Shown here: positions 1 to 58,569 of the stretch, piece after piece | Position numbering within the stretch: the stretch's first letter is position 1 | Layout of the letters: each line of letters begins with the position of its first letter | NCBI GenBank assembly: GCA_035553855.1 | Contig: DATMJO010000163.1 | Coordinates: 1,403 to 65,402 of the forward strand | Reading direction: 5' to 3' | Length of the DNA stretch: 64,000 nucleotides | From: Thermoleophilaceae bacterium | GTDB taxonomy: Bacteria; Actinomycetota; Thermoleophilia; Solirubrobacterales; Thermoleophilaceae | Position numbers and translations under genes: made by a program | Notes under the pieces: generated by a model | Told to the model about the DNA's origin: nothing | What the model saw: only the letters and a program-made list of their open reading frames with translations | Databases searched by the model: none

Positions 1-70
1 CCCGCTCGGCGGCGCGGATCCGCGCCTCGCGGTAGACCTCGTCAGGCACCGAAACCGTGATGTTCTTCAC
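1..70 (-). CDS. ribbon-helix-helix (CopG/antitoxin-like) protein, N-terminal fragment; the gene runs off the window start
   Basis: The reverse strand from GTG at 70..68 reads VKNITVSVPDEVYREARIRAAER, a typical RHH antitoxin N-terminus. It is absent from the ORF track because no stop lies inside the window. Confidence 0.45.
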   Translation of the reverse strand, partial: MKNITVSVPDEVYREARIRAAER

Positions 71-82
71 GCCGCGACAGTA

Positions 83-112
83 CCACAGGACCACAGCTAC
101 TGTGAACCACAG
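83..112. promoter_or_regulatory. candidate operator upstream of the RHH gene: three CCACAG repeats, including the palindrome CACAG-CTA-CTGTG
   Basis: CCACAG occurs at 83-88, 91-96 and 107-112. The palindrome spans 92-104. All lie 13-42 nt upstream of the RHH start codon. Confidence 0.35.
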
Positions 113-261
113 ACCGCAGCCTCCGCGTCGGACAGCAACCTCAGGGCCCGCGCATCCGACCAAACCTGACCGCGCTTGACCCGTTCGAGGTAGCGGCTGA
201 GGCTTCTGGCGCAGCTCTCGACTCCGACCCGCTCGCATGTGCGTCGTGAGGTGGCACTTGG

Positions 262-993
262 CTACCGCTCACAGAGGGAAGCGAGACGAGCCACGGCCTC
301 GGTAAACGGACCGGTTCCCGGCCTGCCCGCGGCAGCCAGGCGCGCACAACCGCGCGAGCGCGGAAGTGCCACGTCCGACCGGCCGCCCCAGCGCTCGCCC
401 ACCGATCCGCCGCCGTTCAGGACCACGAGCGGGCGCGGGCCGACCCGCGCCAGCCGCTCCGCCAGGACCGCCGCGAGCGCCGGCTCGTCGGTCTCGCCTG
501 CCACGAGCACGACCGCCGTCGCGAGCGAGGCGGCCGGCGCCGCCTGCGTGACAGGGCCCGCGTCGATCACGAGCGGCGCGAGCCCCGCCAGGGCACGCTC
601 GGCCTCCGCCGGCCCCGCCGGCCCGACGAGGCAGAGCCGCCCGCTCGCTCGCGCGTCGAGCCCGCCGCGAGTGCTCGCCGCCCGGGCCAGGCGCGCGGCG
701 GCCGCGGTTCCCAGCGGGAGCCCGGCCGGGGCGCTCTCGGCCGAGACCGCCGCGGCGCCGCCCGGATCGAGCCGCGCGAGCTCGACGCCGAGCGCGCGCG
801 CCACCGTGGTCGCGCCCGTTCTCGCCCGGAGGCCGCAGACGGCGACGACCGGCGGGACGGCCGGCCCGCATGACTGCAACGAAGGCGGCGCGGATGCCTC
901 CTGCGCAGGCTCGAGCAGGAAGGCCTCGGCCCGCGCCAGAAGGGTCGAGAGGACCGATGGCGGGGTCGCTCGCGTCGCGGCTCGCTCACTCAC
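262..993 (-). CDS. hypothetical protein with a degenerate ParA/MinD/CpaE-like P-loop (no Walker A lysine)
   Basis: The segment VVAVCGLRARTGATTVARALGVELA resembles a deviant Walker A. The start overlaps the upstream TadE-like stop (ATGA). Its composition is protein-like, unlike the R/P-rich antisense ORFs. Confidence 0.5.
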   Translation of the reverse strand: MSERAATRATPPSVLSTLLARAEAFLLEPAQEASAPPSLQSCGPAVPPVVAVCGLRARTGATTVARALGVELARLDPGGAAAVSAESAPAGLPLGTAAAARLARAASTRGGLDARASGRLCLVGPAGPAEAERALAGLAPLVIDAGPVTQAAPAASLATAVVLVAGETDEPALAAVLAERLARVGPRPLVVLNGGGSVGERWGGRSDVALPRSRGCARLAAAGRPGTGPFTEAVARLASLCER

Positions 994-9725: not shown

Positions 9726-10306
9726 AACGCCCCCGGGGCCTCGCCCTCGAAGGAGATCTCGACCTCGGCCAGGCCCGAGGCCTCCCACTCGTCGCGCAGC
9801 AGCCCCAGGATCACGCAGTCGCGCGGCTCGCCGCGATGGAGCTGCCAGCGGCGCAGGCAGCCCTCGCGGAGGAAGCCGATCCGCTCGAGCGCGGCCAGGC
9901 TCCGCTCGTTGTCGGGGCTCGCGAGCGCCGTGACGCGCTCGAGGCCCAGCTCGCGGAAGGCGAGCGCCAGCACGAGCGCCTTCGACTCGCGGTTCGCGCC
10001 GGTACCCCAGTGAGCGCGCCCGAGCCAGGTGCCGACCGTCGCCCGGCGGTCGCGTGAGGAGAAGTCCGCGAGGCCCGTCACGCCGATCGGCCGGTCGTCC
10101 GCGCCCGCGATCAGGAACTCGAGCCGCTCGCCGCGCTCGCGCTGATGGGCGAGCGAGTCGATGTAGCCGAGCGGCTCGCCTATCTCGCGGTAGGGCCCCC
10201 ACGAGAACCAGCGCGTGACCTCCGGGTCGGAGCCCAGCTCGAGCAGGGCCTCGGCGTCGGGCTCACGTGCGAGTCGCAGCGAGAGCGTAGGGCCGCGCAC
10301 CACCAT
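9707..10306 (-). CDS. GNAT N-acetyltransferase (RimJ/RimL-like)
   Basis: The internal ATG at 10306 gives MVVRGPTLSLRLAREPDAEALLEL, a typical GNAT fold. The start overlaps the upstream stop (TGATG). Confidence 0.85.
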   Translation of the reverse strand: MVVRGPTLSLRLAREPDAEALLELGSDPEVTRWFSWGPYREIGEPLGYIDSLAHQRERGERLEFLIAGADDRPIGVTGLADFSSRDRRATVGTWLGRAHWGTGANRESKALVLALAFRELGLERVTALASPDNERSLAALERIGFLREGCLRRWQLHRGEPRDCVILGLLRDEWEASGLAEVEISFEGEAPGAFYSQRK

Positions 10307-11024: not shown

Positions 11025-11810
11025 TCAGATGATCTGCGCCACCGCGCCGCCGTCGACCGACCAGGCGGCGCCCGCCACGTTCGAGGCGAGCTCCGAGCAG
11101 AGGAAGCAGATCACCGCCGCGGCCTCCTCCTCGGTCCCCATCCGCCCGAGCGGGATCTTCGCGGCGGCGTCCGCGATCGCCTCGTCCGCCGTCGTGCCCT
11201 GCCGCTCGGCGATCTGGTCGGCCAGGCCGCCCTCCCGACGCCAGAGGGACCCGTCGAGGGGACCCGGCGCCACGGCGTTGACTAGCACGCCCCTCGCCGC
11301 CCAGGCGTCCGCGAAGGTGCGCGAGAGGGAGAGCTGCGCCGCCTTCGAGACCGAGTAGTCGGCGTAGCGCTGGGACGGCCGCTTGCCCGAGGCGCTCGTC
11401 ACGTTCACGATCCGTCCACGCCCGCGCTCGGCCATGCGCGGGGCGGCGGCCCGCATCAGGCGCATCGGGGCCATCACGTGGATCTCCCACTGGGCGTACC
11501 AGTCGGCGTCCGCCAGCTCGTCGATGGATCGGATCGTCGCGGTGCCGGCGTTGTTCACCAGCACGTCGATCCCGCCGAAGCGCCGCTCGCATTCCGCGAC
11601 GACGCGCTCCCCGGCGTCGGGCACGGTCACGTCGAGCGAGAGCCACTCGGCGCCGTCGCAGGAGGCGGCGGCCTCCGCGAGGCGCTGCTCGTCGCGCGCC
11701 ACCAGCAGCACCCTCGCCCCCTCGGCCGCGAGGGCGCGCGCGGTGGCGAGGCCGATGCCCCGGCTCGCCCCCGTCACGACGCACGCGCTTTGCTTCAGGC
11801 CGAGATCCAC
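11025..11810 (-). CDS. SDR-family oxidoreductase
   Basis: [11 protein letters not shown] (TGxxxGxG), NNAG and YSVSKAA (YxxxK) are present. The start is taken at the GTG of [10 protein letters not shown]. Confidence 0.88.
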
Positions 11811-18957: not shown

Positions 18958-20601
18958 TCAGCGCGCGGAGGCCACCTCGACCGTGACGCGCTCGCCCAGA
19001 TCGCCGTCCGACAGGCGCGCGCGCAGGACCTTCTTGTCGAACTTGCCGACGCTCGTCTTCGGCACCTCGTCGATGAAGGCGTACTCGTCCGGCACCCACC
19101 ACTTCGCGACGCGGTCCCGTAGGTGCGCGCAGAGGTCATCCGCGCTGCACGCGCAGCCCTCCCGCAGCACCACGCACGCCAGCGGGCGCTCGGTCCAGCG
19201 CTCGTCCGGCTTCGCGATCACGGCGGCCTCGACGACGTCGGGGTGCGCCATCAGCTCGTTCTCGAGGTCGACGGACGAGATCCACTCGCCGCCCGACTTG
19301 ATCACGTCCTTCGCGCGGTCGGTGATGCGCACGAACCCGCGGTCGTCGATCGCCGCGATGTCGCCCGTCCGCAGCCAGCCCGAGTCGAACTTGTCGGCGT
19401 CCGAGGGATCCTCGTAGTAGGACGACGCCACCCACGGGCCGCGAACCTGGAGCTCGCCGGTCGACTCGCCGTCCCACGCGACCTCGGCGCCGTCGTCGTC
19501 CACGAGCCGGGCCTCGACGAGCGGAACCAGCCGGCCCGCGCGCGAGCGGTAGTCCCAGTGCTCCTCCCCTTCGGCGTCCGCGGGCGGCGCCGCCACCGAG
19601 CCCAGCGGGCTCATCTCGGTCATGCCCCAGGCCTGGACGATCTTGACGCCGTGGCGCTCCTCGAATGCCTGCATGAGCGACAGCGGCACTGCGGCGCCGC
19701 CGCAGATCACCACGCGCAGGCTCGAGAGGTCGGGCTTCGCCTCGTCGGCGTAGCGCAGCATGTCCATCCAGATCGTCGGCACGCCGGCGGCGACGGTGAC
19801 CCGCTCCGACTCGATCAGCTTCGCGAGCGGCTCACCCTGGAGGAAGCGGCCCGGCATCACGAGGCTCGCCCCGGTGAAGCCGCAGGCGTACGGCAGCCCC
19901 CAGGCGTTGGCGTGGAACATCGGGACCACCGGCAGCACGCGGTCGTCCGCCCCGATCCCGAGCGTGTCGGCGAGGCACGATGCGAGCGAGTGGAGGACGT
20001 TCGAGCGGTGCGAGTAGAGGACGCCCTTCGGGTTGCCCGTGGTGCCGCTCGTGTAGCAGAGGCCAGCCGCGGTACGGTCATCGAGGTCCGGGTAGGCGAA
20101 GCCCGCGGGCGCCCCGGCGAGCAGATCCTCGTAGCGCAGCACCTCGCCCGGCAGGGCCGACGCGTCGGCGTCGCCGATCACGACCCAGTGCTCGACCGTC
20201 TCGAAGCTGCCCGCCACCTTGGCGATGAGCGGCACGAGCGAACCGTCGACCACGACGACCTTGTCCTCGGCGTGGTTCGCCACATAGGTGAGCTGCTCGG
20301 GAAAGAGCCGGATGTTCAGCGTGTGGAGCACGGCGCCCATGCAGGGCACGCCCAGGTACAGCTCGAGGTGCTGCTGGTTGTTCCACGAGAACGTGGCGAC
20401 GCGGTCGCCGGGCCCGACGCCGAGGCCGGCGAGCGCCGCGCAGAGGCGGTCGATCCGCGACCCGACCTCCGCATAGGACGCGGAGCTCACGCCGTCGCCC
20501 TCGAGCGTGACCGCGCGGCCCGCCGCCCCCACCGTCCGCATCCGCCGCAGAACCGTCTGGGTGGTCAGCGGGAAGTCGTGCTGCATCAGCCCCTCGAGCA
20601 T
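18958..20601 (-). CDS. long-chain fatty-acid--CoA ligase (AMP-binding, FadD-like)
   Basis: YTSGTTGNPKGV (AMP motif), GWLRTGD and SVGKFDKK are present. Confidence 0.92.
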   Translation of the reverse strand: MLEGLMQHDFPLTTQTVLRRMRTVGAAGRAVTLEGDGVSSASYAEVGSRIDRLCAALAGLGVGPGDRVATFSWNNQQHLELYLGVPCMGAVLHTLNIRLFPEQLTYVANHAEDKVVVVDGSLVPLIAKVAGSFETVEHWVVIGDADASALPGEVLRYEDLLAGAPAGFAYPDLDDRTAAGLCYTSGTTGNPKGVLYSHRSNVLHSLASCLADTLGIGADDRVLPVVPMFHANAWGLPYACGFTGASLVMPGRFLQGEPLAKLIESERVTVAAGVPTIWMDMLRYADEAKPDLSSLRVVICGGAAVPLSLMQAFEERHGVKIVQAWGMTEMSPLGSVAAPPADAEGEEHWDYRSRAGRLVPLVEARLVDDDGAEVAWDGESTGELQVRGPWVASSYYEDPSDADKFDSGWLRTGDIAAIDDRGFVRITDRAKDVIKSGGEWISSVDLENELMAHPDVVEAAVIAKPDERWTERPLACVVLREGCACSADDLCAHLRDRVAKWWVPDEYAFIDEVPKTSVGKFDKKVLRARLSDGDLGERVTVEVASAR

Positions 20602-54124: not shown

Positions 54125-55006
54125 ATGCCCGAGGTCCCCGGCGTCCGCCATTCGCGGGTGCGGGCGGGCGAGGTCACGCTCCACGTGGCCGAGGCGGGCG
54201 AGGGCCCGCCGCTCGTGCTCCTCCACGGCTGGCCTCAGCACTGGTACCTCTGGCGCGACGTCATTCCGGTGCTCGCCGCCGACAACCGGGTGATCTGCCC
54301 CGACCTGCGCGGGTTCGGCTGGTCGGACGCCCCCCGGGCCTCCTACGACAAGGAGACCCTCGCCCGCGACGTCATCGCCCTGCTCGACGCCCTCGGGCTC
54401 GACCGGGTGCGGCTCGCGGGGCACGACTGGGGTGGGTGGACCGGCTTCCTCGTCTGCCTGCTCGCCCCCGAGCGGGTGGAGCGCTTCGTCGCGCTCAACA
54501 TCCCCCACCCCTTCACCGGCCACGGGCCCCGCGGCCTGCTCACGCTGTGGCGGTTCGCCTACCAGGTGCCGCTTGCCCTTCCGGGGCTCGGGAGCCGGAC
54601 CAGCCGCTGGCTCGCATCCTGGGACTCGGCTCGCGCGCAGCGCGCTGGCATGCCGTGGGACCCCGCGGAGACCGACACCTTCCTCGGCCAGTTCGCCGAG
54701 CCCGCCCGCGCTGAGGCGGCATCGCGGGTCTACCGCTCCTTCATCACGACCGACATGCCGCGCTCGCTGTCGAGCCGCTACCGGGCGATGCGGCTGCGCA
54801 CCCCCACCCTGATCCTGCACGGGACCGGCGACCCCGCGGTCCGGCCGGTCCACCTGGAGGGGTACGAGCCCTACGCCGACGACCTCCGGGTAGAGCTCGT
54901 CCCGAGTGCCGGCCACTTCATCGTGGACGAGCAGCCCGACCTCGTCGCCACCCGCCTGCGCTCGTTCCTCGGTGGGAGCTCTCAGGCCGGCGCCGAGACC
55001 GGGTAG
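54125..55006 (+). CDS. alpha/beta hydrolase (epoxide hydrolase/haloalkane dehalogenase-like)
   Basis: LLHGWPQHWYLW and GHDWGG (nucleophile elbow) are present. An alternative ATG lies at 54086. Confidence 0.88.
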   Translation: MPEVPGVRHSRVRAGEVTLHVAEAGEGPPLVLLHGWPQHWYLWRDVIPVLAADNRVICPDLRGFGWSDAPRASYDKETLARDVIALLDALGLDRVRLAGHDWGGWTGFLVCLLAPERVERFVALNIPHPFTGHGPRGLLTLWRFAYQVPLALPGLGSRTSRWLASWDSARAQRAGMPWDPAETDTFLGQFAEPARAEAASRVYRSFITTDMPRSLSSRYRAMRLRTPTLILHGTGDPAVRPVHLEGYEPYADDLRVELVPSAGHFIVDEQPDLVATRLRSFLGGSSQAGAETG

Positions 55007-55104
55007 CGCTCCCGCCACGCGTCGAGTCCGCCCTCGAGCGCCGCGGCCCGGAACCCCATGACGATGAGCTTCGACGCCGCACGGGCGCTCGTCTCCTCGC
55101 TCAG
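54982..55104 (-). other. in-frame continuation encoding the second half of the rhodanese domain after the TGA at 55107..55105
   Basis: LSEETSARAASKLIVMGFRAAALEGGLDAWRERYPVSAPA* matches the rhodanese C-terminal helix-strand-GGxxAW pattern. It overlaps the 3' end of the convergent hydrolase gene. Confidence 0.55.
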
Positions 55105-56562
55105 TCAGGTGCAGTAGAGCACGATGAGGCGGTCGCGCTCCTGGTCGCGCGCCCAGTCCGAGATCCGGTCGGCGGGCACGCGAACGGCGCCCGCTATTCC
55201 GTCCGGGTCGCGGCGCACGGCGGAGCGCGAGCGGACATCGACCACGACCGGCGGCTCCGGGCCCTCGAGGAGCTCCGCCAGCTCGGCGACCCCGACCCGC
55301 GGGGCGCGGTCCGGATCCGGGCGGAGCAGGCCGCCGACCGTGCTCTCGCGCTCCTCGGGGTGCACGGTCTCCTCGATCCGGCGCCCGTACCAGGCGCTGA
55401 AGGGCGTAGCCGTCGTGCCGTGCAGGAAGACCGATACGAGCACCACGAACCCGGCGAGGCCGAAAAGCTCGGACCCGTTCGGGACGCCCGCCTCCACCGC
55501 GATCAGGATCAGGAGCAGCGAGTTGAGGCCGCGCGGGCCGAACCAGGCGATGAAGGCCCGGCCGTCGCGGCTCATGTCTACGTGGCGAACCGAGAGCATC
55601 CACCCGAGGGCGAGCGGGCGGGCGATGAGCAGGGCGACCGCCGCGAGCAGCAGCCCCTCTCCCGCCGGCACGGCGCCAAGCTCGGACGACAGCACGATGC
55701 CGAACAGGACGAAGGAGACGAGCATGAGCAGCTCGGCGATCACCTCACCGAAGTCGAGGAAGCAGTCGCAGAGCGTCTTGTTGGACAGCGAGACCGCCGC
55801 CCCGGCGGCGAACGAGGCGAGAAAGCCATCGGCGCCGAAGGTCTCACCCGCGCTGAAGGCCCCCAGGACCAGCGCGATGCCGTAGAGGGCCTGCCACTCG
55901 CGGCGGACGGGCCTGCGCGCGTCCACCTCGTGCATCAGCGCCGCCCCGGCGAGGCCCACGGCGGCCCCGAGCAGCGGTCCCACGAGAACGAGCTGGATTC
56001 CGAACCAGGCCCAGTCCGCCGCGCCCCCCACGTTGCCGGCGGCGACGGCGGCCAGTACCAGGACCGGGGGGAGCACGAAGACGTCGTTCGTGCCGGCCTC
56101 GACCGTGAGGGCGCGGCGGACCGAGTTCGGGATCCGCTCGTCCCCGACGACGTCGCGCAGCACGACCGGGTCCGTGGACGCGAGCGCGGCGCCGAGCAGG
56201 AACGCCGGCACGGGGTCGAGGCCCGCCACGAGCATTGCCGTGACGGCCACGATCGCGACCACGATCGCCGCGCCCGGCCCGAGGGTGAGGGCCGGAACGA
56301 GCCACTCGCGCCGGACGTGGCGCAGGTCGAGGCTGACCGCGTCGAGGAACAGGACGAGCGCGAGCGTGGCGAACGCGACCGTGCGGAGCGCGTCGTCCTC
56401 CAGGTGGATCTCGACCGCGCCGGTCGCGCCCTCGCCCAGCACTAGCCCGAGCGTGAGGAAGATCATCGGGAACGACAGCGGGAGCCGGTCGATCACCCCG
56501 GCGAGCAGCGCGGAGACGGCGAGGACCGCGGCCCCGACCGCGAACAGCCCTACCGGGTCCAT
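55105..56562 (-). CDS. CPA1-type cation/proton (Na+/H+) antiporter fused to a rhodanese domain that is cut by a TGA
   Basis: The core is multi-TM (ATDPV, GPRG). The C-terminal VVVDVRS...DRLIVLYCT is the first half of a rhodanese fold. Confidence 0.88.
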   Translation of the reverse strand: MDPVGLFAVGAAVLAVSALLAGVIDRLPLSFPMIFLTLGLVLGEGATGAVEIHLEDDALRTVAFATLALVLFLDAVSLDLRHVRREWLVPALTLGPGAAIVVAIVAVTAMLVAGLDPVPAFLLGAALASTDPVVLRDVVGDERIPNSVRRALTVEAGTNDVFVLPPVLVLAAVAAGNVGGAADWAWFGIQLVLVGPLLGAAVGLAGAALMHEVDARRPVRREWQALYGIALVLGAFSAGETFGADGFLASFAAGAAVSLSNKTLCDCFLDFGEVIAELLMLVSFVLFGIVLSSELGAVPAGEGLLLAAVALLIARPLALGWMLSVRHVDMSRDGRAFIAWFGPRGLNSLLLILIAVEAGVPNGSELFGLAGFVVLVSVFLHGTTATPFSAWYGRRIEETVHPEERESTVGGLLRPDPDRAPRVGVAELAELLEGPEPPVVVDVRSRSAVRRDPDGIAGAVRVPADRISDWARDQERDRLIVLYCT

Positions 56563-56692: not shown

Positions 56693-57655
56693 TCAGCCGA
56701 GGCGCACGTGCAGCCGCACGACGCTGCCCGACTCGAAGCTGCGCAGCTGGACGAGGTCGCAGACCTGGTTGACGAGCCAGAGACCGTGGCCTCCGATCTG
56801 CCCGCCGGTGGGGCACACCCGGCCGGCGAGCGGCTCGTCGATCCGGCCGGAGTCCGCGATCTCCAGCACGAGACGTCCGTCCTCGCGCCACATCCGGAGC
56901 TCACCCCCGCCGCCGCCGTAGCGCACGCTGTTGGTCGCGACCTCGTTCGCGGCCAGCACGACGTCTTCACCGCGCTGGGAATCGATGCCGGCGTTCGCGG
57001 CGTGCACGGCGACGGCGCGCCGGACGAGGTCGAGCCCGTCGATGTCGAACGCCAGCGAGAAGGGCCGGACCGCGGGCTCCGGGAGAGGCGCGGCGAAGGG
57101 CGCGGCGATCGCGCTGAGACCGGCGAAGCGGTCGCTCTCGCACGCGCCACCCTCGTCCACGACGACCGGGTGGGTCGCGCGGGCCGTCTCGACCACTTCA
57201 GGGTCGAGCGCCGCGACGTCGTATGGGCAGAGGAGGTTGAAGGCCGCGGTGTCCGCGAACGCCACGTTGAGGAGCGACTCGTGCCGGTGGCACTCGACCA
57301 TCTCCGCGTGGTCGCGGCCGGGATGGATCGGCTCGCCGATTCCCCTGATCCCGCCGTTGTGCGAATGCTCGTCCGCGAAGTCGCGCCAGGCCGGGATGAT
57401 GCGGGCGGGATTCGCGCCGACCTCGGCCATGTCGGCGAACGAGACGGCGTCCGCGTCGGAGCCCAGTTCCCCGCGGAGCATGCGGATCTTGCGCGCGGAG
57501 ACCACGACGAGCGTGGCCTCGTCGCGCTCGAGCCCGTCGCGGATGTACGGCACGGTGCCGGCGAGGAAGCCCTCGTCGCCCTCGTACATCAGGGCTCCGT
57601 GGACGAACGAGCCGGGCTCGTGGTCGTGGTCGTGAGCGCTCGCGATGGCCGTCAT
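56693..57655 (-). CDS. MEDS-domain plus HATPase (RsbW-like) anti-sigma-factor kinase
   Basis: The N-terminus HGALMYEGDEGFL...VVVS is MEDS-like. The C-terminus is ANEVATNSVRYG..GHGLWLV. An ATGA overlap joins it to the upstream gene. Confidence 0.8.
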   Translation of the reverse strand: MTAIASAHDHDHEPGSFVHGALMYEGDEGFLAGTVPYIRDGLERDEATLVVVSARKIRMLRGELGSDADAVSFADMAEVGANPARIIPAWRDFADEHSHNGGIRGIGEPIHPGRDHAEMVECHRHESLLNVAFADTAAFNLLCPYDVAALDPEVVETARATHPVVVDEGGACESDRFAGLSAIAAPFAAPLPEPAVRPFSLAFDIDGLDLVRRAVAVHAANAGIDSQRGEDVVLAANEVATNSVRYGGGGGELRMWREDGRLVLEIADSGRIDEPLAGRVCPTGGQIGGHGLWLVNQVCDLVQLRSFESGSVVRLHVRLG

Positions 57656-58569
57656 CCGTCCGCCCTCCCGTGCCCGTTCGCGCCCGAGACCACCGCGAGC
57701 TGCGGACAGTCGAGCCAGCCGCAAATGGAGAGGAGGCGACGCACGTAGTCGGGAGGGTCGAGCAGCACGAGGAACCGGCCCTGTTCGAGCTTCATCGACG
57801 CCTGGACGAGAATCCTGCAGCCCGTGAGGTCGATGAATGAAAGGCGTCGCGCATCGATCACTATGTCCTCATCGCCCGGAAGGTGCTCGGCGATGCGGGC
57901 CGCGACGTATGGCGCCGTGTCGAAGTCGATCTCGCCCGACAGCTCGACCCCGGGCACGCCATGGCGCTCGGTGACCGTCACGGGACCCCGGCTCGCCGCC
58001 GTCGCGGCGCCGTCTGCCCAGATCCGGTGGGCGTGCGCGCCGACGAGGTCGTCGAGCACGTCGTCCGGGAACACGTCGCGGTCGAACTGACACGCGCCGA
58101 CGAGGTCGGCGCCGGCGAAGATCCGCCCCAGCCCGCGCTCGTACTCCAGGACGCGGCCGAAGTCCTCGGGTGCGTCGAGCATCCAGCTCATCTCGCCCAT
58201 GACGGCCAGGGCCGAGTAGCCGTCCTGACGCGCGCGGCGGCGCTCGGCGTCGAAGGCGTCGATCTGGCGCTCGGGGTCGAAGCCACCGTCGCCGTAGGCC
58301 CCGGCGGCCGCGCCGAGCTCGAGCGCCCCGCCGTCGAGCCGTGAGGCGCTGTCGAGGCCGGCATCGTCGAGCCAGGAGCGGACCGTGCCCTCGTCCGTCG
58401 TGTGCGCGAGGTAGAGCAAGCGCGCGTCGCGCGCCCACGCGTCACGGGCGAAGCGAATCAGCGCCTCCCGATGATCGTCCTCGGACGCGGTGGTCACGCA
58501 GAAATGGTCGCCGGGAGCGACCCCTGCAAGCGCCCTGCCAGCCAGAGCCCCACCAGGCTCTCCGCACAT
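57652..58569 (-). CDS. MEDS-domain plus STAS (anti-anti-sigma) fusion protein
   Basis: The N-terminus DHFCVTTASEDDHREAL...LLYLA is MEDS-like. The C-terminal IDARRLSFIDLTGCRILV is STAS-like with Thr at the phospho-site position. Confidence 0.72.
   Translation of the reverse strand: MCGEPGGALAGRALAGVAPGDHFCVTTASEDDHREALIRFARDAWARDARLLYLAHTTDEGTVRSWLDDAGLDSASRLDGGALELGAAAGAYGDGGFDPERQIDAFDAERRRARQDGYSALAVMGEMSWMLDAPEDFGRVLEYERGLGRIFAGADLVGACQFDRDVFPDDVLDDLVGAHAHRIWADGAATAASRGPVTVTERHGVPGVELSGEIDFDTAPYVAARIAEHLPGDEDIVIDARRLSFIDLTGCRILVQASMKLEQGRFLVLLDPPDYVRRLLSICGWLDCPQLAVVSGANGHGRADG

Follow-up and report, generated by a model that had tools for sequence, protein, structure and literature searches.

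A predicted selenocysteine codon with an embedded insertion signal in the C-terminal rhodanese domain of a cation:proton antiporter from a Thermoleophilaceae bacterium

On the minus strand of a 64,000-nucleotide (nt) stretch of DNA from a Thermoleophilaceae bacterium (assembly GCA_035553855.1, contig DATMJO010000163.1, positions 1,403 to 65,402; hereafter the window, meaning the whole stretch that was analysed), a gene for a cation:proton antiporter is interrupted by an in-frame TGA in the middle of a C-terminal rhodanese domain. From comparison with its relatives, we consider it highly probable that this is a genuine selenoprotein gene, and that its product would be a 526-residue antiporter-rhodanese with selenocysteine (Sec) at position 486. 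An earlier, sequence-only reading of the window had placed Sec recoding first among the possible explanations of the TGA, and the relatives favour the same choice, as in 129 related loci the column holds either a Cys codon or TGA, never another stop codon, and the tail beyond it is conserved.

The antiporter open reading frame (ORF) begins at ATG 56562 and translates into 485 residues, ending with the codons CTC TAC TGC ACC TGA. According to the sequence-only reading, this ORF closes on DRLIVLYCT-TGA (55107..55105), carries a Cys two residues before the stop (C484, 55113..55111), and continues in the same frame for 40 codons that supply the missing second half of a rhodanese fold. Translation bears out each of the first three points, the 40 codons reading LSEETSARAASKLIVMGFRAAALEGGLDAWRERYPVSAPA before a second TGA at 54984..54982. 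The last is supported by the Pfam rhodanese model PF00581, which, with the stop masked, matches residues 426-518 over model positions 3-101 of 102 at 32-36 bits (cutoff 22.2); this full-length match contains the internal TGA and is obtained only when the UGA is read through, and by Pfam neither half of the domain is a complete fold alone. The preceding membrane domain is matched by PF00999 (Na_H_Exchanger) over residues 16-390 at 125.2 bits (cutoff 26.2). The length of the open frame after the TGA was also considered as a test of coding, and was discarded as uninformative at 73% GC, where the +2 frame is equally open.

The TGA column was followed in relatives both as protein and as DNA. A protein search against a collection of ~5.8 billion proteins, from which the best 120 homologs were listed, returned a 100% identical protein (P0001) annotated 'cation:proton antiporter'. 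Two length classes make up these best 120 homologs. In about 75 of them, with lengths of 472-490 amino acids (aa) and identities between 89% and ~54%, the sequence stops at the same column, as ...YCT and rarely as YCS, FCT or WCT; proteins of the second class, of 518-555 aa, read YC[TS]-C-P/L-x-[ED]-x-T-[SA]-A-R through the stop column. Since this full-length class continues YC[TS]-C, the stop column of the window corresponds to the second Cys in a C-x-C motif. DNA loci were collected by an alignment-based scan of one genome per GTDB species and of JGI metagenomes, together with individual protein look-ups, and the motif could be located by pattern in 129 related loci. The codon at the column is TGA in 119 of these, TGC in 6, TGT in 4, and TAA or TAG in none, so that the TGC/TGT check advised in the sequence-only reading found 10 Cys-coding orthologs and Sec forms are ~12 times as common as Cys forms. 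Loci outside the pattern were inspected directly and added one further Cys form (L036) and one further TGA form (L061). At the level of sequence, TGA against TGC/TGT and never TAA/TAG is the classic Sec/Cys signature. In two loci from Dehalococcoidia (L032 and L033, at ~11440 in each), the column holds TGG (Trp), reading YC[TS]-W-HRESSS, and the usual P-x-E-A-T-S-A-R loop has degenerated. It looks as if a single-nucleotide change freed this lineage from the need for Sec, probably at the expense of its active site. Several related antiporters carry no rhodanese domain at all.

The TGA and the tail are kept together from 89% down to ~35% identity and in at least nine phyla. TGA forms occur in Actinomycetota (Thermoleophilaceae, Rubrobacteraceae and Acidimicrobiia), in many orders of Chloroflexota, in Acidobacteriota, Gemmatimonadota, Binatia, Armatimonadota and Neomarinimicrobiota, in Syntrophobacteraceae and a 'delta proteobacterium' (Desulfobacterota-like), and in Gemmataceae (Planctomycetota). 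The Chloroflexota include a cultured organism, Ktedonospora formicarum SOSP1-1, in which the TGA lies at 11543 of NZ_BNJF01000002.1 (L073) within AYCA-U-PNEETSTRAV. In the TGA forms the peptide after the TGA always conforms to p.EaTSARvAr.Lr..G..aaal.gG..aw. Furthermore, nucleotide variation in the tail is 3-periodic, with entropies by codon position of 0.59/0.65/1.29 before the hairpin described below and 1.12/1.03/1.65 after it, as expected of translated sequence.

The sequence-only reading had kept two simpler explanations in play, a fresh nonsense mutation and a sequencing error. A recent inactivating change of TGC to TGA, leaving a fresh pseudogene with a decaying tail, needs a single substitution, Cys forms do exist among the relatives, and annotation pipelines call the 485-aa product. 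However, the closest relative (L083), which comes from a separate sequencing run, shares 89% aa identity; of the 485 codons before the TGA, 166 differ synonymously and 55 non-synonymously from those of the window. Despite this divergence, its TGA falls at the same codon, its tail also runs for 40 codons to the same final TGA with the motifs intact, and its hairpin-region nucleotides are identical to those of the window. Given that the same TGA recurs in 119 of 129 loci across this range of phyla and identities, that it has outlasted the synonymous divergence from L083, that the tail is under coding-type constraint and that the hairpin is under selection as RNA, we attach virtually no weight to a recent mutation. 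Nor can the related TGA loci be copies of one contaminating sequence, as their identities run from 35% to 89%. An error in sequencing or assembly at 55105-55107 might be suspected of a metagenome-assembled genome (MAG), but an independent ENA assembly (ERZ27256743, contig k141_6085; L169) matches the window without a difference over 1801 nt, the TGA included, and relatives from unrelated samples carry the same codon; the chance of such an error is negligible. Taken together, the conservation in L083 and the identity of L169 leave no room for a new nonsense mutation, a misassembly or a pseudogene tail in decay.

The first 60 nt from the UGA (numbered with the U of UGA as nt 1) were aligned without gaps in 62 TGA forms, and a nearly invariant segment, AGCGCCCGUGUGGCGC, stands out. 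It contains a conserved hairpin, GCGCC-CGUGY-GGCGC, with a 5-bp stem (nt 20-24/30-34) that starts 16 nt after the UGA and sits within the codons for S-A-R-V/A-A of the active-site helix. Each of the five core pairs forms in 97-100% of 61 distinct sequences. Double compensatory changes occur at 21:33 (CG to UA) and at 22:32 (GC to AU), the latter altering the protein on both sides of the loop (Ala to Thr with Ala to Val), and the cultured K. formicarum carries a compensated variant of the stem, GCACC/GGUGC. None of 500 column shuffles reaches the observed covariation score, and slid registers score far worse. All five pairs are present in 107 of 112 unique Sec forms versus 1 of 10 Cys forms. 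Codon choice in the Sec forms follows the stem: the Ala codon 8 is GCC in 105 of 105, in hosts with a G+C content of 48-75%, Ser 7 is always AGY and codon 10 always ends in G, whereas the Thr codon just upstream of the stem varies (ACC 53, ACG 29, ACA 19, ACT 5). Because synonymous sites are frozen within the stem and the Thr codon beside it is free, selection must act on the RNA, and on this comparative evidence the hairpin is under RNA-level selection that is specific to TGA-carrying genes.

In bacteria, Sec is inserted when SelB, carrying Sec-tRNA(Sec), binds a hairpin in the mRNA, the selenocysteine insertion sequence (SECIS), while the ribosome stands at the UGA. In the window, the element that we predict to have this role consists of GCGCC (55088..55084) paired with GGCGU (55078..55074) around the loop CGUGC (55083..55079), extended below by CG (55091..55090) paired with CG (55073..55072), with A55089 bulged. 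Its energy is -8.2 kcal/mol, or -10.7 kcal/mol when the flanks are allowed to pair (RNAfold). The published bacterial SECIS (bSECIS) model has a loop of 3-9 nt with a G in its first two positions, a stem of 4-16 bp, a minimum free energy (MFE) of at most -7.5 kcal/mol and a distance from UGA to loop of 16-37 nt (PMC13188914). The conserved element lies within every one of these bounds, with a loop of 5 nt, a stem of 5 bp plus a variable lower stem (2 bp in the window) and a UGA-to-loop distance of 21 nt; its loop consensus, C-G-[U/G]-G-[U/C], has the G as its second nucleotide, with U or G after it, and an energy of -7.5 kcal/mol or lower is reached by 113 of 120 Sec forms. A search of the whole window at the Rfam gathering thresholds gave no family match, hence no curated SECIS model.

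This is not the hairpin that the sequence-only reading had offered as the SECIS, which spanned 55066..55102, with an inner part beginning 11 nt after the UGA and closed by the loop CCGU. RNAfold does reproduce that structure exactly (-15.7 kcal/mol, nt 4-45), but it is not conserved. In its register (stems 15-18/32-35 and 21-23/28-30), pair 16:34 occurs as A-U only in the window, and its outer GAGC/GCUC helix is 57% paired, no more than in shuffles. The register that is conserved and covaries is nt 20-24/30-34 with the loop CGUGC.

A conserved stop followed by a conserved hairpin might also mark programmed termination, in which the 485-aa product would be functional and the 40 codons would form a separate small ORF or a regulatory RNA. 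The stop position and the hairpin are indeed both conserved. However, neither half of the domain makes up a complete rhodanese fold, the 5' end of the tail offers no start codon and no ribosome-binding site, Cys-form homologs translate through the same column, and the hairpin is lost where Cys replaces TGA, which fits a SECIS rather than a terminator or an independent RNA. We therefore regard programmed termination as very improbable. If the gene is instead a selenoprotein gene, as we believe, the Sec codon has an internal counterpart for comparison: a UGA also serves as the ordinary terminator of the same ORF 40 codons downstream, and no such hairpin is found there. Since UGA ends the same mRNA so soon afterwards, recoding would be local and dependent on context, and not a reassignment of the genetic code.

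Several observations weigh against a functional selenoprotein in this organism. The top pair of the stem in the window is G-U rather than G-C, the alternative register of the sequence-only reading is equally stable in the window (-8.3 versus -8.2 kcal/mol), and the 71-nt region is less stable when folded than its dinucleotide shuffles (z = +1.34; 185 of 200 shuffles at least as stable). The rhodanese domain scores below the cutoff of its best NCBIfam match, NF041203 (78 versus 115 bits). Genes selA, selB and selD and a tRNA-Sec were not found in the 64-kb window, and no Sec machinery lies within 10 kb of the Thermoleophilaceae-like orthologs. Finally, Sec incorporation is a prediction from sequence for all members of the family, and the regulatory function discussed below is argued by analogy only.

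The search for the machinery extended beyond the window. ARAGORN reported no tRNA in the 64 kb, and the 10 kb on either side of P0013, P0016 and P0001 contained neither Sec machinery nor a conserved functional context. When E. coli SelA, SelB and SelD were compared by tblastn with the window and the first 80 loci, nothing was found in the window, and the only matches elsewhere were an incomplete selA at one end of L016 and, in L050 and L053, weak SelD-like (PurM-superfamily) matches. The former, at 1-366 (minus) of a Ktedonobacterales MAG contig, is an N-terminal SelA homolog with 36% identity to E. coli SelA residues 12-130, which runs off the contig edge less than 10 kb from the TGA-form gene. 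In a Thermoanaerobaculia locus (L022), a tRNA-SeC with anticodon tca lies at 9821-9918 (plus), ~4 kb downstream of the TGA-form ortholog, with no sel genes adjacent to it. Use of Sec has been reported in Rubrobacter xylanophilus (PMC1794560); we found no report of it for Thermoleophilia in the open-access literature. The tRNA-SeC of L022, the partial selA of L016 and the report on R. xylanophilus lend indirect support to Sec decoding, and we infer that SelA, SelB, SelC and SelD are present in the source genome.

Were that machinery lost, the gene would be a relic, its UGA either terminating translation or permitting low-level near-cognate readthrough, and its product a truncated antiporter with half a rhodanese domain. 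The lack of Sec machinery in the 64-kb window is compatible with this, as are the weakened G-U pair at the top of the stem and the Leu that follows the UGA in place of the usual Pro, and lineages that have replaced Sec do exist (the Cys forms, and the Trp of L032 and L033). In contrast, once Sec decoding is lost, TGC or TGG should become fixed, or the tail should disappear. The window and L083 have diverged heavily at synonymous sites and have nevertheless kept the TGA, a tail of equal length with its motifs, and the nucleotides of the hairpin, which requires selection to have continued to act on translation of the tail. We consider a relic unlikely, and prefer the reading of a selenoprotein gene in use.

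How the predicted Sec is placed in the active site was approached by alignment and modelling. The sequence-only reading had put the TGA at the position of the catalytic Cys, and this holds in part. Counting back from the helix T-S-A-R-A-A, U486 stands at the distance of Cys65 in E. coli GlpE; a profile alignment to GlpE, however, pairs Cys65 with C484 and treats T485-U486 as a 2-residue insertion. In the closest solved structure, the BH2092 rhodanese (PDB 3o3w; E = 1.7e-8, gapless), the Cys is likewise at the position of C484, and C484 is invariant across the homologs in two alignments. The canonical catalytic position is thus ambiguous between C484 and U486. An AlphaFold2 (AF2) model of the Cys form P0003 (pLDDT 88, pTM 0.87) has a strand at 480-483, C484-T485-C486 as coil and a helix from P487. 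In the model, the two chalcogen positions, which are two apart in sequence, lie at the opening of the active-site loop, a geometry that would allow a selenenylsulfide.

Based on these observations, we propose the following model. UGA-486 would be decoded as Sec by SelB and Sec-tRNA(Sec), directed by the hairpin in the S-A-R-A-A codons, to give a Cys484-Thr-Sec486 (C-x-U) motif in the active-site loop of a C-terminal, cytoplasmic rhodanese domain. At the second UGA, 40 codons on and without a hairpin, translation would end. Cation:proton antiporters (CPA) with C-terminal regulatory domains include KefC, SOS1, SLC9C1 and the RCK-bearing NhaP2/CvrA. By analogy with these, the rhodanese domain is most likely a redox-, persulfide- or selenium-responsive switch, in which a selenenylsulfide between C484 and U486, or a perselenide or persulfide on U486, may gate K+(Na+)/H+ exchange.

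The module may not be confined to antiporters. In L142 (108-755, plus), and likewise in L143, a second selenoprotein candidate lies directly upstream of the antiporter-rhodanese gene, with its TGA at 582. In its predicted product, a rhodanese domain that reads LYCS-U-PNEATSARVA follows the C-terminal part of a membrane protein of the DedA/VTT type (PF09335), and the gene carries the same hairpin, AGCGCCCGGGUGGCGC. Judging by this candidate, antiporters seem not to be the only membrane proteins to which the Sec-rhodanese module is fused. We put forward as a speculative extension, which we hold to be possible rather than probable, that the C-x-U rhodanese with its embedded SECIS is a portable, selenium-dependent sensor module carried on different membrane proteins, and that it gates ion transport in many soil bacteria. 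If so, a selenenylsulfide or perselenide switch would gate transport in soil Chloroflexota, Actinomycetota, Acidobacteriota and Gemmatimonadota, the regulatory domain would be made only when selenium is supplied, termination at the UGA would yield a tail-less transporter, and the selenoprotein cation:proton antiporter, a kind of which we found no report, would be widespread.

Whatever its function, the family exposes a systematic error of annotation. Gene callers halt at UGA, and database copies are for this reason annotated as truncated antiporters of 472-490 aa; every TGA-form copy among the matches listed, including the NCBI call for the source MAG, is cut at the Sec codon. As all of these truncated copies are labelled plain cation:proton antiporters, the entire regulatory domain is hidden. 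With them corrected, the few transport proteins predicted to contain Sec would be joined by a cation:proton antiporter, from a family that is common in soil phyla with poorly charted selenoproteomes. The SECIS is unusually clean and short, and the natural Sec, Cys and Trp variants provide a built-in control, which makes the family a good model for the co-evolution of an RNA signal and an active-site peptide in the same nucleotides. Furthermore, with K. formicarum SOSP1-1 as a cultured carrier, the Sec prediction is directly testable. The features of the gene are collected in Table 1.

Table 1. Positions in the window of the antiporter-rhodanese gene and of its predicted elements
Feature	Position	Strand	Basis or remark
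Full recoded coding sequence, 526 codons plus stop	54982..56562	minus	ATG 56562; Sec-UGA is codon 486; final TGA 54984..54982
CPA1/NhaP-type cation:proton antiporter membrane domain, residues 16-390	55393..56517	minus	PF00999
C-terminal rhodanese domain, residues 426-518	55009..55287	minus	PF00581; complete only with the UGA decoded
Cys484 (TGC), first residue of the C-x-U motif	55111..55113	minus	Invariant column in homolog alignments
UGA codon 486, predicted selenocysteine	55105..55107	minus	TGA/Cys column in related loci
40-codon tail after the UGA (L-S-E-E-T-S-A-R-A-A...GG..AW)	54985..55104	minus	Covers the active-site loop, the helix and the final strands of the rhodanese domain
Predicted bacterial SECIS	55072..55091	minus	Covariation, Sec-versus-Cys contrast and bSECIS criteria
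Alternative hairpin GAGC...GACG-AG-CGC[CCGU]GCG-G-CGUC...GCUC	55066..55102	minus	Local MFE fold, specific to the window sequence

When the tail is counted as coding, the gene overlaps by 25 nt (54982-55006) the 3' end of a convergent plus-strand alpha/beta-hydrolase gene (PF00561, stop 55004..55006); the present annotation shows a gap of ~100 nt between the two. Directly upstream of the antiporter gene, at 56693-57724 (minus), lies a gene for an anti-sigma-factor-like protein with MEDS and HATPase_c_2 domains, which in the independent assembly L169 is itself preceded by a MEDS and STAS gene. On the 1.2-Mb contig of L168 the MEDS gene pair is ~9 kb from the antiporter ortholog and not adjacent to it, which makes a functional link between the pair and the antiporter doubtful. 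A scan of the whole window for other in-frame TGA junctions, using the G+C content of third codon positions (GC3), picked out sites at 18960, 21921 and 42221 (minus), each with a high-GC3 open frame on both sides and 83 to 364 codons downstream; these are most likely adjacent genes in the same frame rather than cases of recoding.

The rhodanese domain itself has known relatives among selenoproteins, as the sequence-only reading had noted for rhodanese-related sulfurtransferases in general. Two reviews, from 2022 and 2026, list 'rhodanese form 2/3, CxU', a prediction that goes back to Zhang and Gladyshev 2005, a UxU rhodanese variant has been reported (PMC1976440), and NCBIfam holds a (seleno)protein family, NF041203 (rhodanese_LYCAU). 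The latter is the best NCBIfam match of the window domain (78.0 bits, E = 5e-22; 68.7 bits in the full protein), ahead of ChrE and GlpE, and the best match for 10 fusion domains from 6 phyla (75.8-98.6 bits), all ten of which also fall below its 115-bit cutoff. The LYC-x-U motif of the family is present as LYCT-U in the window and as LYCA-U, AYCT-U or AFCA-U in relatives. Like NF041203, the fusion domains have a rhodanese fold with C-x-U (LYC[AT]U) in the active-site loop and occur in both Sec and Cys forms; unlike the curated family, which is standalone and ~126 aa long, the domain here forms the C-terminus (residues 419-522 of 526) of a 13-helix antiporter. Since they score below the cutoff, the fusion domains are best described, on sequence, as a sister subfamily of NF041203 and not as members by the NCBI criterion, and the antiporter-rhodanese fusion as a new architecture of the known CxU rhodanese selenoprotein domain. 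The Sec-containing transport proteins named in the list retrieved from the 2026 review are the mercuric transport protein, E1-E2 ATPase, YeeE/YedE, Sao proteins and the SO_0444 efflux transporter, and a Sec-containing cation:proton antiporter is absent from that list (PMC13188914). Nor did we find a paper in the open-access literature that links a rhodanese selenoprotein to NhaP or another antiporter.

For the membrane domain, NCBIfam gives K+/H+ antiporter models as the best matches, none of which reaches its cutoff (top NF003716, 136 versus 355 bits), and from these models there is no equivalog-level assignment of ion specificity. The domain resembles the NhaP/CPA1 antiporters PaNhaP and MjNhaP1 in its PF00999 fold, and the AF2 model of the Cys form P0003, which is 69% identical, superposes on PaNhaP (4cz8) with a TM score of 0.75 and a probability of 1.00. 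In having a transporter followed by a cytoplasmic C-terminal domain, the protein resembles NhaP2/CvrA (RCK_C), KefC (KTN), SOS1 and SLC9C1, but the appended domain here would be a Sec-containing rhodanese. That rhodanese shares the fold of GlpE, PspE and BH2092 (PDB 3o3w, 3nhv), with the catalytic Cys placed after the central strand and before a loop and a helix. Compared with GlpE, however, the loop here has two extra residues; it contains a further chalcogen residue (Sec or Cys) at +2, and the CxxGxR signature is missing from it. Similarly, the predicted SECIS is like the bacterial elements of the E. coli fdhF type and the bSECISearch consensus in being a hairpin within the coding sequence just past the UGA, with loop, spacing and MFE inside the published ranges. 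In contrast to these, its core is very short, near-invariant across phyla and locked to the codons of the active-site helix.

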